A DNA stretch of 13,541 nucleotides from the NCBI GenBank assembly GCA_029856365.1, contig JAHQWW010000103.1:1-13541 (forward strand), written 5' to 3'. Numbering within the stretch: the first letter of the stretch is position 1; every line of letters begins with the position of its first letter. Positions 2,884-13,241 of the stretch are shown piece after piece. A program made the translations under genes and the position numbers. The notes beneath the pieces were generated by a model, which saw only the letters and a list, made by a program, of their open reading frames with translations, made no database searches and was not told where the DNA came from. The DNA comes from Candidatus Hodarchaeota archaeon (lineage in GTDB: Archaea > Asgardarchaeota > Heimdallarchaeia > Hodarchaeales > Hodarchaeaceae).

Positions 2884-3867
2884 TTAGAGAATTTGTCGTT
2901 TAATCTCTGATTTATCTTTCATATGTTCTTGTTTCCAGTATGGATCGCGAATATAAAGATATGCGCCATGAGCAGCTAGAGCTCCTTGAGCAGCTGCTAC
3001 TGTAGCTAACTGGTAGGGAGTAACAATATCTCCTGCAGCAAAGACTCCTTCAATATTTGTACGTTGAAGTTCATCAGTTTTAAGGAACTTTCCTTGGAAT
3101 TCTAAACCTAAATCCTGAAAAATTTCAGTGTTTGGTGTTAACCCTACTGCGAGGATGACTTTCTCAACGTTAAGTTCTATTTTCTCTCTAGTTTTAACAT
3201 CCTCTAGGATAGCTCCTTCTACTTTAAGTTGCCCAAGAATCTCTTTTATAGTTACATTTGTTAAAATTTCAGCCATTTTTTCCTTTTTTACTAGTTCCAA
3301 GTTTGTCTCTGATGCCCTGAAATCACTCCGACGGTGTGCTAGATATATTTTTTTTGCAATTTTGTTTAAATCTATAACCGCATCAATAGCGGTATCTCCC
3401 CCCCCTATAACTAGTACGCGACGATTGTAAAAGATTTCTGGTTCGATCACATATGGATATACGCCTCTGTCCTTCTTAGAGAGTTTTGTTTCACCAGGGA
3501 TCCCAAGTTCATTCGGTTTCATTCCTGTGGCAATGATGACTGATTTTGCTTGAAAGATTGTACCTTCGGAAGTTTCAACTTCTAAATTCTTACGTATTTT
3601 TGTCACTCGTTCTTTTATGAGATGAACTCCGTGATCCGCAGCTTGTCGAACCCACTCTGAAACGAGATGTTCTGCACGGATACGAGGCGTACCAGGATAA
3701 TTGTAGATCTTCTTTTTTGGATATATAGTACTTAAAAGTCCTCCCCACGTTCCTCCCTCGAAAACTACCGTAGTTAATCCTTTAAGAGAAGAAATAATTC
3801 CAGCAGAAAGCCCTGCTGGGCCACCTCCTACAACAATGACATCAAAATCACCAGATAAACCTACCAA
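2884..3867 (-). CDS. Thioredoxin-reductase-fold NAD(P)/FAD oxidoreductase lacking CxxC (YumC-like ferredoxin/flavodoxin-NADP+ reductase type)
   Basis: FAD motif GGGPAG, ATG motif, NADPH motif GGGDTA plus HRRSDFRA, and RTNIEGVFAAGD. GGLLSTIYPKKKIY resembles YumC. The TrxR CxxC site reads GVYPYVIEP and the protein has no Cys at all. TTG start with AGGTGA SD. Confidence 0.88.
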   Translation of the reverse strand: MVGLSGDFDVIVVGGGPAGLSAGIISSLKGLTTVVFEGGTWGGLLSTIYPKKKIYNYPGTPRIRAEHLVSEWVRQAADHGVHLIKERVTKIRKNLEVETSEGTIFQAKSVIIATGMKPNELGIPGETKLSKKDRGVYPYVIEPEIFYNRRVLVIGGGDTAIDAVIDLNKIAKKIYLAHRRSDFRASETNLELVKKEKMAEILTNVTIKEILGQLKVEGAILEDVKTREKIELNVEKVILAVGLTPNTEIFQDLGLEFQGKFLKTDELQRTNIEGVFAAGDIVTPYQLATVAAAQGALAAHGAYLYIRDPYWKQEHMKDKSEIKRQIL

Positions 3868-3907
3868 AATTCAATCACCTGGATTATAATTATAAAAACA
3901 AATTATA

Positions 3908-5005
3908 TCAATTTAGGTTTAAAATAGATTTTTTAATTTCAAAAGCATGTTGAGACAATCGTTCTTGAGCAAATGTCCCTGACAGCTCCCATATATTTCT
4001 AATCTTCCCTTGGCGATCGATTAGAAAAGTTGTTCTTTTAGCCAATCCAACTTCGTCATTTAAACAACCATATTTGGTTGAAATATCTTTTTCTATGTCT
4101 GTTATAAGTGGAAATGGAAGCTCTTGGTCGTTTCTAAAGGATTGTAAATCAGTAATGTTATCAACCGAGATCCCAATGACTTCTGCATTTAGATTTTTCA
4201 GCTCATTATAAGCATCACGAAATCCTTGTGCTTCAATAATACATCCTGGAGTGTTCGCCTTGGGGTAAAAGAAGAGAACAACATCTTTTTTGTTTCGATA
4301 ATCAGAAAGTCTTATTATTTCACTTCTATCTGTTTCCGCAACAAAGTCAGGAGCAAGATCACCTATTTGCAAAGAACCACTGTGTGTTTCAACTTTTGTT
4401 AGTGATTGAGTCTTAGTTGAATAACTGTCCTTGATTCTTCCCCAGACAGGGAGATTTTTATCCATTTTTAGCATCGTAGGCATGCATAAAGGACAATTCT
4501 CATCATGAGAACTTCCATTAATGGGTGAGGCGACATGAAACCAAGGGTAGATTATACTTGAAAGCAGTTCCTTTTCAAATGCTTGGACTCTTGGATTGTT
4601 CAATCGATCCCAGGGAGTTTCTTGATATTCCTCATCTAATAACCAAGAAATACTTTTGAAGAGGTTATTGACAATTTCCATTGTTTCAGTATTAACATCT
4701 CCCTCCTTAAATGCTGCACAAATAATATTATCTGATTTTGTATAGAAGAATAATAATTTCAAAGACCCAATACTCATACTATGAACTTTAGTGTTTGATT
4801 CAGCGAACATCCCTGGCATTGTGGAGACAGCAGCTAAAAAAGCTGTCAATAATTCGTCTTTTTTTCCTAACAATCCACAAACATTTCCCCAACACTTAGA
4901 ATAAATCGGTTGTCCCGAATCTTGATAGATGATGAGGTATTCTAAGTTAATTCCCCTAGATTGATTCTTTCTTTTAAAAATATTTAGTATGGATTTGAGT
5001 TTCAT
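3908..5005 (-). CDS. Fusion of an N-terminal longin-like domain and a C-terminal BCP/PrxQ peroxiredoxin
   Basis: Residues ~212-365: LQIGDLAPDF, VVLFFYPKANTPGC (PxxxTxxC), VIGISVD, LPFPLITD, RTTFLIDRQGKIR. Residues ~20-155 show a longin-like beta-beta-alpha-beta-beta-beta-alpha-alpha pattern (YLIIYQDSGQPIYSK, DELLTAFLAAVS, VHSMSIGSLKLLF, NIICAAF). The Prx call is strong; the longin call is pattern-based. Confidence 0.85.
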   Translation of the reverse strand: MKLKSILNIFKRKNQSRGINLEYLIIYQDSGQPIYSKCWGNVCGLLGKKDELLTAFLAAVSTMPGMFAESNTKVHSMSIGSLKLLFFYTKSDNIICAAFKEGDVNTETMEIVNNLFKSISWLLDEEYQETPWDRLNNPRVQAFEKELLSSIIYPWFHVASPINGSSHDENCPLCMPTMLKMDKNLPVWGRIKDSYSTKTQSLTKVETHSGSLQIGDLAPDFVAETDRSEIIRLSDYRNKKDVVLFFYPKANTPGCIIEAQGFRDAYNELKNLNAEVIGISVDNITDLQSFRNDQELPFPLITDIEKDISTKYGCLNDEVGLAKRTTFLIDRQGKIRNIWELSGTFAQERLSQHAFEIKKSILNLN

Positions 5006-5080
5006 TTATTCCTCACATAATTTAATATATTCTTATTAATATTATTGGGATTACATTAAAACAATTATTGGGTAATTAGA

Positions 5081-5632
5081 TCAGGAACATGATCTTAAAA
5101 TCATTGGCATGCATATTGGGCAATTATCTTCGTGTTTATCTCCATTATTTGTTAATACAAGATGAAACCAAGGGTGAATAGCATTCTTCAGCAGTTCTTT
5201 TTCAAATGAGCGGACTTTTGGATCGTTTAATCGGTCCCAGGGTGTTTCAGGAAAATCCTCATCTAATAACTGAGAGATATCCTTGAAGAGATTATTTACA
5301 ATTTCCATTGTATTTTTATTTACGTCTCCCTTTGGAAATGCCAAACATATAATATTTTCTGATTCTGTATATGAAAATAACAATTCTAATGATCCAATGC
5401 TCATACTATGGACTTTTTTATCTGATTCAGCAAACATTCTTGGCATTGTGGAAACTGCTGCCAGAAATGCTGTCATTAATTCGTCTTTTTTTCCCAACAT
5501 CCCGCAGACATTACCCCAGCATTTTGCATAGATAGGTTGGCCCGAATTTTGACAGATAATGATATATTCTAAACTAATTTGAGTAGGTTGTTTTTTTCTT
5601 TTGAAGACATCTAATAAAGTATTAAATTTCAT
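5081..5632 (-). CDS. Stand-alone longin-like protein, paralog of the N-terminal domain of 3908-5005
   Basis: Aligns without gaps to residues 1-180 of the downstream fusion (125/180 identical by hand count); retains CWGNVC and HxxNCPxC. Confidence 0.82.
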   Translation of the reverse strand: MKFNTLLDVFKRKKQPTQISLEYIIICQNSGQPIYAKCWGNVCGMLGKKDELMTAFLAAVSTMPRMFAESDKKVHSMSIGSLELLFSYTESENIICLAFPKGDVNKNTMEIVNNLFKDISQLLDEDFPETPWDRLNDPKVRSFEKELLKNAIHPWFHLVLTNNGDKHEDNCPICMPMILRSCS

Positions 5633-5879
5633 TTATTCATCACTTATATCAGAGTCTTTGAATAAAATACATAGTCTTCAAGAAGACATTGATTTGATGA
5701 ATTATAATTTTTTCAATATGAAATTCGTTATCAACTAGACCCATATCAAAAATTAAATGGACTGATTAAATATATTAATCCCAATAATCTTTGATAATAT
5801 AGACTATTTCTTCGCAAATATTATTCTGAATCTCAAAGTCTTGATTTCAGTAAATATCAACAATTAACAAGGTGGAAAT

Positions 5880-6011
5880 TGGGAATGTAGAATGTGCGGA
5901 TATACCTATGATGAGGAAGTCAAAGAACTTCCCTTTGAAGAGCTTCCAGACGATTGGGTTTGTCCTTGGTGTAAAGCTCCAAAAAAATACTTTGTAAGAA
6001 TCAATAACTAG
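5880..6011 (+). CDS. Short-chain rubredoxin reading frame, not in the ORF track; no in-frame start codon before the first Cys, so possibly a pseudogene
   Basis: Translates WECRMCGYTYDEEVKELPFEELPDDWVCPWCKAPKKYFVRINN*, with CxxCGY...FEELPDDWVCPxC. In-frame TAA at 5865-5867; nearby GTG (5872) and TTG (5879) are out of frame. Confidence 0.85.
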   Translation, partial: WECRMCGYTYDEEVKELPFEELPDDWVCPWCKAPKKYFVRINN

Positions 6012-6030
6012 CTAGAAGGATTATTTAACA

Positions 6031-6594
6031 TTATTTTTTGATATATTTATTCATGTAGATGAACTCATCTAAAGGTTTTCGTGTAGGACGTTTTACTTCA
6101 CTTTTTTTTTGATAGTCTTCAAAAAAGTCTGGAATTTTATCTGATTTTTTCCCAACGATTATTAAGGTTATCAGATGCATTTCATCAGGAAGTTCCAAGA
6201 GTTCCTTTACTTTTACTGGATCAAATCCTGCTATTGGATGTGCAACTAAACCTTGATCAGTTAAATGTAGAATCATAAATGCAGTTGCCATTCCTGTATC
6301 AAATAGATAATATTGTCGGTCACTTATTACACAATCCAAATCAATTCTGGAAAATACTGCAATGATCATACTAGCAGCTTTTGCCCATTTATTTCCTTTT
6401 GAAAGACCCTCATTCTGCAATTTGGTGAGTAAGATTTTTTCGAAAACGAAGATATACCTCCATGGTTGTTTATTGAAGCATGAGGGAGCTAATTGAGCTA
6501 TATGTGCGGTTTTTTCGATTAATTCTTTTGTTATTTCGACGGATTCTAATGCTCTATATGCTCTTCTTCTATTAACCACTTCTTCAAATGTCAA
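6031..6594 (-). CDS. Nitroreductase family flavoprotein
   Basis: RRAYR, LAPSCFNKQPWRYIFV, FDTGMATAFMILHLTDQGLVAHPIAGFD and RKPLDEF. Start reassigned to TTG 6594 because GGTGA lies 7 nt upstream; the ORF track starts at 6615. Confidence 0.92.
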   Translation of the reverse strand: MTFEEVVNRRRAYRALESVEITKELIEKTAHIAQLAPSCFNKQPWRYIFVFEKILLTKLQNEGLSKGNKWAKAASMIIAVFSRIDLDCVISDRQYYLFDTGMATAFMILHLTDQGLVAHPIAGFDPVKVKELLELPDEMHLITLIIVGKKSDKIPDFFEDYQKKSEVKRPTRKPLDEFIYMNKYIKK

Positions 6595-8957: not shown

Positions 8958-9500
8958 TTGAATTCTAAATATGAAAAATATAGTTTTGAACAAATTACTC
9001 TTGGTGTATTAAGAATAGTGATGGGATTTGTGTTTCTATGGCCATTCCTAGATAAGATGTTTGGATTAGGGTTCGCTACGACACCTGAAAACTCGTGGCT
9101 TGCTGGTGCATCTCCTACACAAGGATTCTTAAAATTCTATGGTGTGAATCAAAATAGTCCATTTGCTTTTCTTTTCTCTGACATCTTAGGTGGTACATAT
9201 CAATTAGTGGATATTGCATATATGGGGATGCTATTGTTTGCTGGTATCGGCCTTATGTCTGGGGTTCTTGTAAGACTATCGAGTATTTCTACAATAATCT
9301 TTCTAATCTCAGTATATCTTTCCGAGTGGATTATTACTCCTGCTCAAGGTACGATGGTATTCAATCCTATAATCGATGAACATATCATCTATATTCTTGT
9401 ACTATTCTTGTTCATCATAATACCAGTTGGTAATTACCTTGGCTTAGGTGAAAAATGGTCAAAGCTTTCGTTTGTAGAGAGATATCCAATCTTGAAGTAG
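8958..9500 (+). CDS. DoxX/DoxD-family membrane protein (thiosulfate:quinone oxidoreductase-related)
   Basis: LRIVMGFVFLWPFLDKMFGLGFAT...W..GASPTQGFL, NPIIDEHIIY and GNYLGLG..W; about four TM segments; TTG start. Confidence 0.85.
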   Translation: MNSKYEKYSFEQITLGVLRIVMGFVFLWPFLDKMFGLGFATTPENSWLAGASPTQGFLKFYGVNQNSPFAFLFSDILGGTYQLVDIAYMGMLLFAGIGLMSGVLVRLSSISTIIFLISVYLSEWIITPAQGTMVFNPIIDEHIIYILVLFLFIIIPVGNYLGLGEKWSKLSFVERYPILK

Positions 9501-9556
9501 AGATAAACTCCCCTCTTTATTTTTTTATTCTATATACATATTTTGATCAAAAAGAA

Positions 9557-9949
9557 TTATGGTGTTGATAATTCCTTATTTTTACATTTTATACAAAAGC
9601 CATAAAAATTAGTTTCTGCAGTGTTAATTTTAAAATCTTTCTGATTCTGTATTAATAGCAAAGCATAATCTATTAATTCTTTGGAATTAAAATCTGTAAT
9701 TTTCCCACAAGATTTACAAATAAGATGATGATGAGCTTCTATCTTTGCTTCAAATCTTGAAACTCCCTTCACATTAACTTCCCTAATCAAACCCTCTTCA
9801 GTTAGCACATTTAAGTTTTTGTAAACAGTGGCTTTAGTTATTCTTGGTAAGCTTTTCTTAACTTCTTCAAAGATCTCTTCTACTGTAGGATGATTGAGAT
9901 TGTCCTTGAGAAAATCTAGGATAGAAATTCGCTGATTGGTATATCTTAT
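9557..9949 (-). CDS. perR: Fur-family, PerR-like transcriptional regulator (~130 aa) with apparent ATA start
   Basis: The frame extends 47 codons upstream of the tracked GTG: (I/M)RYTNQRISILDFLKDNLNHPTVEEIFEEVKKSLPRITKATVYKNL. It continues with RFE...HHHLICKSCGKITD and GFCIKC; the Asp in KITD is PerR-like. Confidence 0.88.
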   Translation of the reverse strand: MRYTNQRISILDFLKDNLNHPTVEEIFEEVKKSLPRITKATVYKNLNVLTEEGLIREVNVKGVSRFEAKIEAHHHLICKSCGKITDFNSKELIDYALLLIQNQKDFKINTAETNFYGFCIKCKNKELSTP

Positions 9950-12356: not shown

Positions 12357-12953
12357 TTGTTATTTTCCAAACCAAAATCATATTCAATACCTCCTAAGGC
12401 ACCAAAGACGTTAAAATTGAAGTAATCATCTGTAATAGTCTTGTGGAGTAAATTAGTGACATTTTTATCTCAAATATAGCTGTATGGATTTTCGTAAAAC
12501 AATAACAATTGTTTAGAAGTATGATCTACGTATAATAATTAATATAAAGAGTTAATGACATTAATAAATCAAACACATTGGAGAAATTGCTCTAATCACT
12601 ATTTCAAGTTGACATTCAATTACTAATTAGTTTAATAGATCTTAGTAGATCCTTTAATAACCAGAATTCTTAGTGTAATAATAAATTAAATGGTATAATT
12701 ATTAAAATTAATGAATCGTTATCGAGAATCAATATTTGAGAAGAAAGAGCCATTATTAATAGTTAACAATTGAGAAAAAACCACAGGATTGTACAAAAGC
12801 AATTTTACTTTACAATGATTATAACTAAGAAGTAACTATAAAATGAAATCTCATTAGCAAAACAAAAAAGAAAGTTAAAAGCCTTGTCACTAAATTGAAG
12901 CACAACAAAGAATAATATGATAAGAAGTGTATACTTCACTAAGAGGAAAGAAA

Positions 12954-13241
12954 ATGTTAAGAAGCCAACGGAAGCCCATATTGCCACCTCCTCGTGCTGA
13001 ACATGAGTATGTAGTGTCAATACTAACTGAACAGTGTGATGGGTGTGAATTATGTGTGGAATTCTGTCCAACAAACGTATTAGAGATCGATTTGGAAGCA
13101 TATAACTCACGAATGCTACATCCAGTTATTGCTGTTAAGCCTGATGAATGTGTAGGATGTCAGCAATGTGAGAGGATTTGTCCCTCAGTCTCAATCTTTG
13201 TTACTGAAATTCAAATATCACAGGAGGGTATAGATACATGA
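12954..13241 (+). CDS. korD: 2[4Fe-4S] ferredoxin-like OFOR delta subunit
   Basis: CDGCELCVEFCP and CVGCQQCERICP; ATG 12954 after GAGGA; stop overlaps the next start (ATGA). Confidence 0.88.
   Translation: MLRSQRKPILPPPRAEHEYVVSILTEQCDGCELCVEFCPTNVLEIDLEAYNSRMLHPVIAVKPDECVGCQQCERICPSVSIFVTEIQISQEGIDT

Follow-up and report, generated by a model that had tools for sequence, protein, structure and literature searches.

A longin–peroxiredoxin fusion encoded beside a free longin and a cysteine-free thioredoxin reductase-like flavoprotein in a Hodarchaeales-type genus

Peroxiredoxins (Prx) fused to thioredoxin-fold partners are already known, and a Prx is tied to a redox module in the Prx–Grx fusion of Haemophilus (PGdx), the AhpC/AhpF pair and the Prx–nitroreductase fusion of Thermotoga. 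The Prx described here is likewise physically or genetically joined to a redox-related module, but whereas the partners in PGdx, AhpF and the Thermotoga protein are Trx-fold CxxC or FMN domains, here the partner is a predicted longin domain whose Cys/His site resembles a metal site. The flavoproteins of known hybrid or dedicated Prx systems, moreover, contain redox-active dithiols, whereas the one encoded next to this fusion lacks any cysteine. Longin folds are used in eukaryotes for the regulation of traffic GTPases and SNAREs, and longins usually function as dimers. A sequence-only reading of this DNA knew of no described system with this architecture, and the papers that we searched contain no account of it; a fusion of longin and peroxiredoxin was not found in that literature, including Tran et al. 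2024 (PMC10933270), which makes no mention of peroxiredoxin. The new element is the coupling of longin to Prx; the flavoprotein belongs to a widespread family with signatures of ferredoxin reductases.

The window analysed is a stretch of 13,541 nucleotides from a Candidatus Hodarchaeota archaeon (GCA_029856365.1, contig JAHQWW010000103.1). Its minus strand carries three open reading frames, 5632..5081, 5005..3908 and 3867..2884, which encode in this order a free longin (Lon, 183 aa), a longin–BCP/PrxQ fusion (LonPrx, 365 aa, P0002) and a TrxR-like flavoprotein (TRL, 327 aa, P0001), in agreement with the earlier description of three co-oriented genes separated by 75 and 40 bp. Operon-like spacing is kept inside the genus. 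The spacer between LonPrx and TRL (3868..3907, minus strand) holds a T-run, a Shine-Dalgarno sequence (AGGTGA) and the A/T-rich TATA-like stretch that had been pointed out before; in two species of the genus it is down to 16-22 nt, again with a Shine-Dalgarno sequence, which makes co-expression plausible, and from this arrangement LonPrx and TRL are probably co-transcribed in the genus. Within the Lon–LonPrx spacer (5006..5080, minus strand), whose mean column identity across six species is 76%, lie a conserved A/T block at about 5020-5047, a Shine-Dalgarno sequence (GTGAGG) and possibly an internal promoter. The region upstream of Lon (5633..5733, minus strand) is also conserved, and gives a phylogenetic footprint across seven species in which the block TGATAACGAATTTCATATTGAAAAAATTATAATTC (5700-5733) contains a TATA-like element and precedes a conserved leader (5633-5668) that includes a Shine-Dalgarno sequence. 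Simple inverted-repeat scans upstream of Lon found no 7-1-7 palindrome resembling those between the Dps-like genes of the same island, and hence no shared operator of that kind.

The Prx domain of LonPrx with its C-terminal extension (residues 214-365; 3908..4366, minus strand) is of the BCP/PrxQ type, scoring 131.3 bits with PF00578 (AhpC/TSA), for which the cut-off is 26, with S. solfataricus Bcp1 (3drn) as its best solved match. With this protein and Burkholderia BCP (5enu) it has in common the AhpC/TSA fold, the PxxxTxxC motif, the conserved Arg and a monomer-sized domain length. The active site, P248..T252..C255 (C255 at 4241-4243, minus strand), conforms to PxxxT/SxxC, and both C255 and the conserved Arg, R324, are invariant in the fusion alignment. 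The sequence-only reading had correctly placed the peroxidatic residue at C255 and a Gln at the resolving position, CP+5; a resolving Cys is absent there in all three fusion lineages (Gln260 here, Arg or Glu in the two others), and by sequence the LonPrx peroxiredoxin is of the 1-Cys type. LonPrx differs from BCP/PrxQ proteins in this missing Cys, in its 180-aa N-terminal longin and linker, in a C-terminal extension conserved among the fusions (IW.L.G.FAQ...H) and in scoring under the NCBIfam equivalog cut-offs (99.7 bits against 140 for PRK09437, the E. coli Bcp/PrxQ level). The coupling of longin and Prx is real and has been kept across deep divergence: the fusion recurs in two other lineages (P0059 and P0065) at 35-37% identity, where C38, C43, H167, C171, C255 and R324 are invariant and C174 and C314 vary, the latter being unconserved outside the genus. 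The N-terminal domain of P0065 falls in another clade, on a long branch, and a single origin of the fusion is not rejected (AU test p=0.18).

Lon (5081..5632, minus strand) is 69% identical to the N-terminal domain of LonPrx (residues 1-180; 4466..5005, minus strand), and the linker that follows that domain (residues 181-213; 4367..4465, minus strand) aligns as a homologue of the basic C-terminal tail (..IW..IK.KY..) of the canonical four-Cys longins. In the tree the two longin domains are sister clades (support 99/96), with P0059 sister to both, and by this topology Lon is a genus-level duplicate of the LonPrx longin domain. The AF2 model of Lon (pLDDT 74, pTM 0.72) has the elements E23-27, E33-38, H42-67, E75-79, E82-88, E94-100, H106-126 and H138-155, that is, the longin order beta-beta-alpha-beta-beta-beta-alpha-alpha with a five-stranded sheet. 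All of the top 20 Foldseek matches are AP sigma, zeta/delta-COP or TRAPP longins, of moderate strength (probability 1.0, E 1e-4 to 1e-3, TM 0.44-0.62, or 0.5-0.62 to the target). The Pfam longin model PF19036 stays below its cut-off of 26.1 on both proteins (18.8 bits for Lon, 14.6 for LonPrx), and a feature search of the ESM Atlas returned only unnamed archaeal clusters and one roadblock/longin cluster at 0.90. The predicted beta2-alpha-beta3-alpha2 topology is common to Lon and the longins of adaptor sigma subunits, zeta-COP, TRAPP (Tca17/TRAPPC2L, sedlin, Bet5) and PF19036 (the first longin of Mon1/Fuz/HPS1), but sequence identity to the known sigma, zeta-COP and TRAPP families is 10-17%. 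No gene for a small GTPase, SNARE or adaptor partner was found in the window; longin homologues of Thor genomes lie near an Arf-like GTPase gene, but inside a collinear block.

Both longin domains contain the motifs reported earlier, CWGNVC (C38, C43) and H167-x3-C171-P-x-C174. The candidate ligands of Lon, on the minus strand, are C38 (5519-5521), C43 (5504-5506), H167 (5132-5134) and C171 (5120-5122), and further cysteines are C174 (5111-5113) and the near-C-terminal C182 (5087-5089); the longin domain of LonPrx has C38, C43, H167, C171 and C174. The Cys/His loop (residues 163-183) is modelled by AF2 with low confidence (pLDDT <50). Members of a wider Asgard longin family, some 180-220 aa long and without Prx, contain exactly four Cys in the arrangement C-x4-C and C-x3-6-C-P, which makes the Cys/His site older than the fusion. 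The third ligand position is Cys in some lineages and His in the genus of the window, G078, P0059 and P0065, with variable spacing, and this exchange fits a metal site better than a redox dithiol. We therefore consider it probable that C38, C43, H167 and C171 form a metal site, most likely for Zn, with Fe or Fe-S also possible. Of the dithiol or metal centre suggested earlier for the longin, the dithiol has His at one ligand position against it. To our knowledge, a C-x4-C ... H/C-x3-6-C-P cluster is no feature of known sigma, zeta-COP, TRAPP or PF19036 longins. All 17 free Lon orthologues end in ...CPxC.P..L..C[S/P], and their extra conserved near-terminal Cys could be a mobile redox thiol.

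TRL (2884..3867, minus strand; TTG start) is assigned by TrxR-family models and alignments, its score with TIGR01292 (TrxR) being 237.5 bits, under the cut-off of 343.45. As had been noticed, it contains no cysteine, with Pro and Ile at the CxxC positions of TrxR in an alignment to 4zn0; 100 of 120 homologue clusters also lack Cys. Its motifs are Y49-P50-x-K52, GVYPYV in place of the TrxR CxxC, H178-R179..R184 for NADPH and a C-terminal R307-x-P309-Y310-W311, and Y49, P50, K52, H178, R179, R184, P309, Y310 and W311 are invariant in the family. TRL scores slightly higher against the archaeal TrxR 4zn0 (175 bits) than against ferredoxin:NADP+ reductases (FNRs; 160 bits). In its YPxKxIY and GVY..V regions no gap is needed for alignment with the TrxR-like FNRs 2zbw and 6gas, whereas true TrxRs require one of three residues. 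TrxR-like FNRs, which have no CXXC, reduce varied acceptors (PMC10294844); for the si-face Tyr of the YPxKxIY segment, the part that Tyr50 plays in the B. subtilis FNR has been described (PMC10526003). TRL resembles these enzymes in the absence of CxxC, the YPxKxIY segment with its si-face Tyr, the HRR..R NADPH site and, by implication, the dimer-type TrxR fold. Unlike the characterised members, it ends in R-x-P-Y-W without the 20-30-aa FAD-covering subdomain, which in those enzymes brings His, Val, Tyr or Phe to the FAD re-face, has a slightly higher overall similarity to archaeal TrxR and belongs to an Asgard-specific clade; its C-terminus is only a short tail with the invariant P309, Y310 and W311, at which the Thor orthologues stop, and which HMMER left unaligned to FNR tails. 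These signatures place TRL in a widespread Asgard branch of the TrxR family whose members almost always lack Cys and which shows traits of TrxR-like ferredoxin/flavodoxin:NADP+ reductases. At E<=1e-90, orthologues are present in 55 of 399 Asgard genomes, nine genus-mates without the longin pair among them, and their neighbours elsewhere are AFOR with ferredoxin, OFOR and Hdr/FlpD-like genes, usually ferredoxin-dependent oxidoreductases.

The island around the locus also carries a Fur/PerR-like gene, Dps-like genes and rubrerythrin, OFOR operons flank the window on both sides, and a ferredoxin is encoded in the window at 12927-13241. Conserved synteny of the three genes, which had been proposed as a check, holds within one collinear genus (g1) and does not extend beyond it. 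Lon and TRL are at most two genes apart in all eight genomes that carry Lon. At the distant fusions P0059 and P0065 neither TRL nor a free longin adjoins, and among 25 loci of distant longin homologues none has TRL or Prx beside it, except G060:C344, where a canonical longin copy is flanked by two stand-alone Prx genes. A search with the family HMM (E<=10) found no longin beside the TRL orthologues of Thor, G065 and Hodarchaeales contigs, and the ~600-aa proteins encoded next to canonical longins do not form a single family. The possibility that TRL is a dedicated Prx reductase, as AhpF is for AhpC, was rejected on the confinement of linkage to g1, its absence at P0059 and P0065 and the presence of TRL in the nine genus-mates that lack the pair. 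A predicted complex of a TRL dimer, two FAD and Lon, computed from our own alignments with no controls, scored 0.00 and counts neither way.

The sequence-only reading had started from a missing dithiol carrier. No thioredoxin is encoded in the window, but on other contigs the same genome has a TrxR paralogue (C36:36899-37789; 345 bits against the cut-off of 343) and at least two thioredoxins, one of them at C36:7055-7363, so that the premise fails at the level of the genome. The best explanation of the whole, to which we give about an even chance, is that the locus belongs to an oxidative-stress island or operon in one Hodarchaeales-type genus and joins two elements that differ in age and range: LonPrx with its metal-site longin, recycled by Trx/TrxR, and TRL, a co-regulated NADP(H) reductase. 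LonPrx would be a 1-Cys BCP/PrxQ thiol peroxidase whose C255 attacks peroxide, with a longin site presumably inherited from the wider Asgard family of free four-Cys longins. Since longins usually work as dimers, Lon may pair with the longin domain of LonPrx, and the longin part would most likely dock or position the peroxidase and possibly respond to it. The C255 sulfenate would then be recycled by the ordinary Trx/TrxR encoded elsewhere in the genome. TRL, for its part, may connect NADP(H) with a one-electron carrier, which could be the ferredoxin of the flanking OFOR operons or the rubredoxin of the island; being probably co-transcribed with LonPrx, it would be co-regulated, yet not a dedicated Prx reductase. 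Against this explanation count the low confidence of the modelled Cys/His loop, the slightly higher score of TRL with archaeal TrxR than with FNRs, a C-terminal tail far shorter than the subdomain of characterised TrxR-like FNRs, and the additional near-terminal Cys of free Lon.

The three-component peroxide reductase originally proposed would instead pass electrons from NADPH through the FAD of TRL to a longin Cys or metal centre, in Lon or the N-terminal domain of LonPrx, and on to C255. Such a chain would suit genes that, wherever the longin pair occurs, lie side by side and probably share a transcript, the promiscuity of TrxR-like FNRs towards protein acceptors (PMC10294844) and C-P and CPxC motifs that are also compatible with an Fe or Fe-S centre. 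It would also suit G060, where Lon and TRL are kept and the Prx fusion is absent, a retention that hints at a relation between Lon and TRL for which our preferred explanation does not account. Yet the linkage is confined to one collinear genus, TRL orthologues are far wider spread and sit in unrelated contexts, neither TRL nor free Lon neighbours the distant fusions, and His at one ligand position rules out a simple dithiol at that pair. We know of no precedent for the reduction of a Prx sulfenate by a one-electron metal centre. With TRL unspecific to the system and a normal Trx/TrxR system present elsewhere in the genome, we regard this chain as very unlikely. A different use of TRL, as an analogue of NADPH:rubredoxin oxidoreductase for the rubredoxin–rubrerythrin pair with the longin genes as unrelated passengers, draws on its lack of Cys and its NADPH-binding residues, and on a span of 3.3 kb that, in the window and five full-island genus-mates, includes rubredoxin, rubrerythrin and a nitroreductase-like gene (the tblastn map shows rubredoxin in all but G071, where it is visible too on separate inspection). 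We consider it decidedly unlikely, given that G065 (CP070760.1) and Thor genomes have TRL without adjoining rubredoxin or rubrerythrin, that G060 keeps TRL with Lon but neither of these two genes, and that known NROR enzymes are of a different branch (E=1.7e-12 for the NorW-type model against 1.4e-70 for the TrxR model).

Prx relays are known from Orp1-Yap1, Tpx1-Pap1 and PRDX2-STAT3, and Zn-thiolate switches from Hsp33 and RsrA. By analogy, the sulfenate of C255 could oxidise a metal-thiolate site, that of the longin domain to which the Prx is tethered, that of free Lon, or both; metal release and a changed longin-mediated protein interaction would then make the module a sensor of H2O2 instead of a bulk scavenger. 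Orp1-Yap1, PRDX2-STAT3, Hsp33 and RsrA serve only as a working analogy, in that a thiol peroxidase hands oxidation to a target Cys; there is no homology, and unlike in those systems the putative target is here covalently fused. The fusion provides the proximity that known relays require, the free paralogue could serve as a diffusible target, and the genes around the locus (Fur/PerR-like, Dps-like and rubrerythrin) would fit a peroxide response. Also in favour, none of the three fusion lineages has a resolving Cys, and the longin Cys/His set does not vary among them; but 1-Cys BCPs without any relay are common, and no output partner was found. The four-Cys site, moreover, predates the fusion and is present in many genomes without any Prx, so that a structural role is the simpler reading, and the relay appears to us possible but doubtful. 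A broader form, in which the Asgard four-Cys/His longins are metal-thiolate switches and the Hodarchaeales fusion is an H2O2 sensor relaying in cis and to the free paralogue, and from there to some process under longin control, for instance the regulation of small GTPases or of membranes, seems to us unlikely.

The fusion offers a biochemical handle on the uncharacterised four-Cys longins found across Asgard archaea, whose metal content, peroxide-dependent oxidation and partners can be assayed. In the metabolism of the Thor and Heimdall groups, the main connection between NADP(H) and ferredoxin has a candidate in the Cys-free TrxR-like family. If the Cys/His site were a redox switch, it would tie the sensing of oxidative stress to regulatory folds of eukaryotic type in the archaea most closely related to eukaryotes, and if the sensor reading were true, the module would be a forerunner, in a prokaryote, of the Prx-based redox signalling of eukaryotes, with a eukaryotic-signature fold as its basis.

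The window is contig C129 of an Asgard MAG with a completeness of 84%, and its protein matches carry the source names Promethearchaeota, Heimdallarchaeota or Hodarchaeales. Its minus strand holds Lon, a free longin of 183 aa (5632-5081), LonPrx, a longin–BCP/PrxQ peroxiredoxin fusion of 365 aa (5005-3908), and TRL, a TrxR-like flavoprotein of 327 aa with a TTG start (3867-2884), with spacers of 75 and 40 bp. Lon matches residues 1-180 of LonPrx at 69% identity, and both contain CWGNVC (C38, C43) and H167-x3-C171-P-x-C174. The peroxiredoxin (Prx) site of the fusion is P248-x3-T252-x2-C255, with Gln260 at the position of the resolving Cys in atypical 2-Cys BCPs, and TRL contains no cysteine. What the sequence-only reading said about the sequence itself is correct throughout. 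The Prx domain scores 131 bits against Pfam AhpC-TSA, LonPrx falls below the NCBIfam equivalog cut-offs, and the best solved relatives are the BCP/PrxQ enzymes Bcp1 of S. solfataricus (3drn) and BCP of Burkholderia (5enu). Judged by its sequence, the domain is a 1-Cys BCP.

For the longin parts, Pfam gave only sub-threshold matches, all to PF19036. An AF2 model built from a 31-sequence alignment (pLDDT 74, pTM 0.72) has the strand and helix order of a longin, and its Foldseek matches are adaptor sigma subunits, zeta-COP and the TRAPP longins Tca17, sedlin and Bet5 (E ~1e-4, TM 0.44-0.62); model confidence is low for the Cys/His loop at the C-terminus (residues 163-183). Nearly all canonical homologues, the Prx-free Asgard longins of 177-223 aa, contain exactly four Cys, two in a C-x4-C motif towards the end of strand 2 and two in C-x3-6-C-P close to the C-terminus. 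C38, C43 and C171 are invariant across the family and P172 nearly so, while the third ligand is Cys in Thor-type and f6 genomes and His in the window's genus, in genome G078 and in both distant fusions. Because such a Cys/His exchange and variable spacing are tolerated by metal sites and impossible for a disulfide pair, we read the cluster as a putative four-ligand metal site.

The fusion recurs in two distant proteins, P0059 (360 aa) and P0065 (341 aa), which have the same longin-plus-AhpC/TSA architecture and are 35-37% identical to LonPrx. All fusions share a C-terminal extension and retain C38, C43, H167, C171, P172, C255 and R324, while C174 and C314 vary; position CP+5 is not a Cys in any of the three lineages. 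In the longin-domain tree, free Lon and the N-domain of LonPrx form sister clades (99/96 support) with P0059 as their joint sister, so free Lon arose at about genus level by duplication of the fused domain. P0065 lies elsewhere on a long branch; the AU test did not reject a single fusion origin (p=0.18). Free Lon has lost the basic tail that survives in LonPrx as a linker, and has gained a Cys one or two residues from its C-terminus (C182 in the window, 5087-5089) that is absent from the fusion and the canonical family; all 17 of 17 free orthologues (P0004-P0020) end ..CP[IV]C.P..L..C[S/P](D). This extra Cys may serve as a mobile thiol or be a site of modification.

The longin family is small, since a profile search of 1.84 billion representatives gave only 165 proteins at E<=0.001. 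Among 399 Asgard genomes, close Lon/LonPrx copies (E<1e-80) occur in only 7-8, all of the window's genus and always as a free-plus-fused pair, except in G060, which has free Lon alone together with a canonical copy; many Thor-type (f31), f6 and f2 genomes carry homologues of 25-34% identity. Within the genus, the pair (window's genome G000, G067, G071, G074-G077) and the canonical four-Cys longin (G061-G064, G068-G070, G073) are distributed almost complementarily. In Thor genomes (L046:7629-13348 of G334 and 11 further loci within L045-L064) the gene order is always an Arf-like GTPase (293 aa), unknown proteins of 186 and 126 aa, a 465-aa coiled-coil protein, a 116-aa unknown, a DUF35/ChsH2 OB-Zn-ribbon protein, an acyl-CoA dehydrogenase and, last, the canonical longin, never with a Prx or TRL beside it. 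A membrane protein of 590-608 aa is convergent to the longin in these loci. In genus-mates G069 and G070 and one f6 genome, an acyl-CoA-synthetase-like gene of 581-629 aa (L059:7633-9378, L060:5387-7132, L052:4842-6731) adjoins the canonical longin, and these neighbours, with the Thor acyl-CoA dehydrogenase, suggest that the canonical longin is repeatedly linked to acyl-CoA metabolism. The genus also has another longin-Prx neighbourhood, in which the two are not fused: in locus L041 (G060:C344, 1-9577), a canonical longin (5966-6499) is flanked by stand-alone Prx genes (2961-3629, 9077-9577), with a rubrerythrin fragment and an acyl-CoA dehydrogenase also nearby.

Linkage of the three genes holds only within the genus. 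The whole 13-kb island (OFOR, CBS, TRL, LonPrx, Lon, rubredoxin, nitroreductase-like, rubrerythrin, two membrane proteins and a second OFOR operon) is collinear in five genus-mates, so their three-gene synteny is no independent evidence. In G060, OFOR-CBS-TRL-Lon runs straight into the second OFOR operon and LonPrx is missing; on the closed chromosome CP070760.1 (G065), TRL occupies the same position but both Lon and LonPrx are absent; and neither TRL nor free Lon lies beside P0065 (two MAGs) or was seen on the short contig of P0059 (2.6 kb). Beside TRL in G071 and G067 lies another pyridine-nucleotide-disulfide-oxidoreductase-type gene (L033:5889-6815, L035:11594-12532), which is ~25% identical to TRL and absent from the window. 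The LonPrx-TRL spacer measures 40 nt in the window and 16 and 22 nt in G075 and G076, respectively, always with a Shine-Dalgarno sequence, which makes co-transcription of LonPrx and TRL probable in this genus. The block TGATAACGAATTTCATATTGAAAAAATTATAATTC (5700-5733, minus) upstream of Lon, with a TATA-like element ~70 nt before the ATG, and the leader 5633-5668 are strongly conserved in seven species and are candidates for either a promoter with operator or an element of the 5'-UTR; the Lon-LonPrx spacer is also conserved (mean column identity 76%) and may hold an internal promoter.

Two other ORFs of the window have questionable starts. The rubredoxin-like ORF at 5873-5993 (+; ..WECRMCGYTYDEE..CPWCKAPKKYF..) has no in-frame start before its first Cys, whereas its orthologues in five genus-mates start M-A-I-W-E-C; a GTG is present in a neighbouring frame, but reading in frame from it would take one more base in the T-run before GGGAATGT, pointing to either a frameshift or an assembly error. 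The Fur/PerR-like ORF at 9557-9808 (-) is only 83 aa long from its GTG start and begins inside the apparent wing of the DNA-binding domain; its start may be miscalled or the gene truncated. Among the five collinear genus-mates, G074 is the only one in which the Fur-like gene and the two Dps-like genes were recovered.

TrxR models are the top-scoring ones for TRL, yet at 237 bits against a cut-off of 343, and archaeal TrxRs (4zn0, 3f8p) and TrxR-like FNRs (2zbw, 6gas) match it almost equally. Two segments favour the FNRs: its G-G-L-L-S-T-I-Y-P-K-K-K-I-Y aligns ungapped to the FNR segment with the si-face Tyr, whereas true TrxRs need a 3-residue gap, and the CxxC stretch is replaced by G-V-Y-P-Y-V, like G-V-Y-Y-A-V of 2zbw. 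TrxR-like FNRs are defined by CXXC loss, and their acceptors are varied (Fd, Fld, NrdI, IsdG; PMC10294844). The Asgard TRL family comprises 120 clusters at >=60% identity, 100 of them without any Cys; Y49, P50, K52, H178, R179, R184 and a terminal R-x-P-Y-W are invariant. Characterised FNRs have a FAD-covering subdomain that is much longer than this tail. Orthologues (E<=1e-90) occur in 55 of the 399 genomes, including 16 of the 21 other genus-mates (17 of 22 with the window's own genome), nine of these without the Lon pair. Elsewhere TRL adjoins AFOR and a 4Fe-4S protein (Thor), OFOR (G065) or Hdr/FlpD-like genes (Hodarchaeales), neighbourhoods that fit an NADP(H):ferredoxin link and not a dedicated Prx reductase. 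This distribution speaks against the proposed place of TRL in a dedicated Prx system; it is probably an old, widespread FNR-type enzyme. In one genus it lies downstream and is likely to be co-expressed.

The dithiol carrier previously thought to be missing is not: on contig C36 the window's genome has a TrxR that passes the curated cut-off (345 bits), and it also encodes a second copy near threshold and at least two thioredoxins, which gives a 1-Cys BCP an ordinary route of recycling. We favour, at about an even chance for the combination, a mechanism in which thioredoxin would recycle the Prx of LonPrx, the longin, with a structural metal site, would serve for docking or pairing, and TRL would work as an FNR-type enzyme. 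A relay of peroxide from the Prx to the longin thiolates would draw on the invariant cysteines that we read as metal ligands, and we consider it rather unlikely. That TRL serves the rubredoxin and rubrerythrin, its island neighbours, overlaps with the favoured mechanism and seems more doubtful still. The electron chain first proposed, from NADPH through the FAD of TRL and the longin Cys to the Prx, is consistent with the gene order of this genus, but given the wider distribution of TRL we regard it as the least probable.

In full-text literature searches, neither a fusion of longin and peroxiredoxin nor a longin with a Cys/metal site was found to be described in archaea, in agreement with the earlier view that the architecture is undescribed, and a survey of Asgard longin, roadblock and GTPase proteins makes no mention of peroxiredoxin (PMC10933270). 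The new element would be a 1-Cys BCP coupled to a longin with a putative metal site and accompanied by a free duplicate of this longin.
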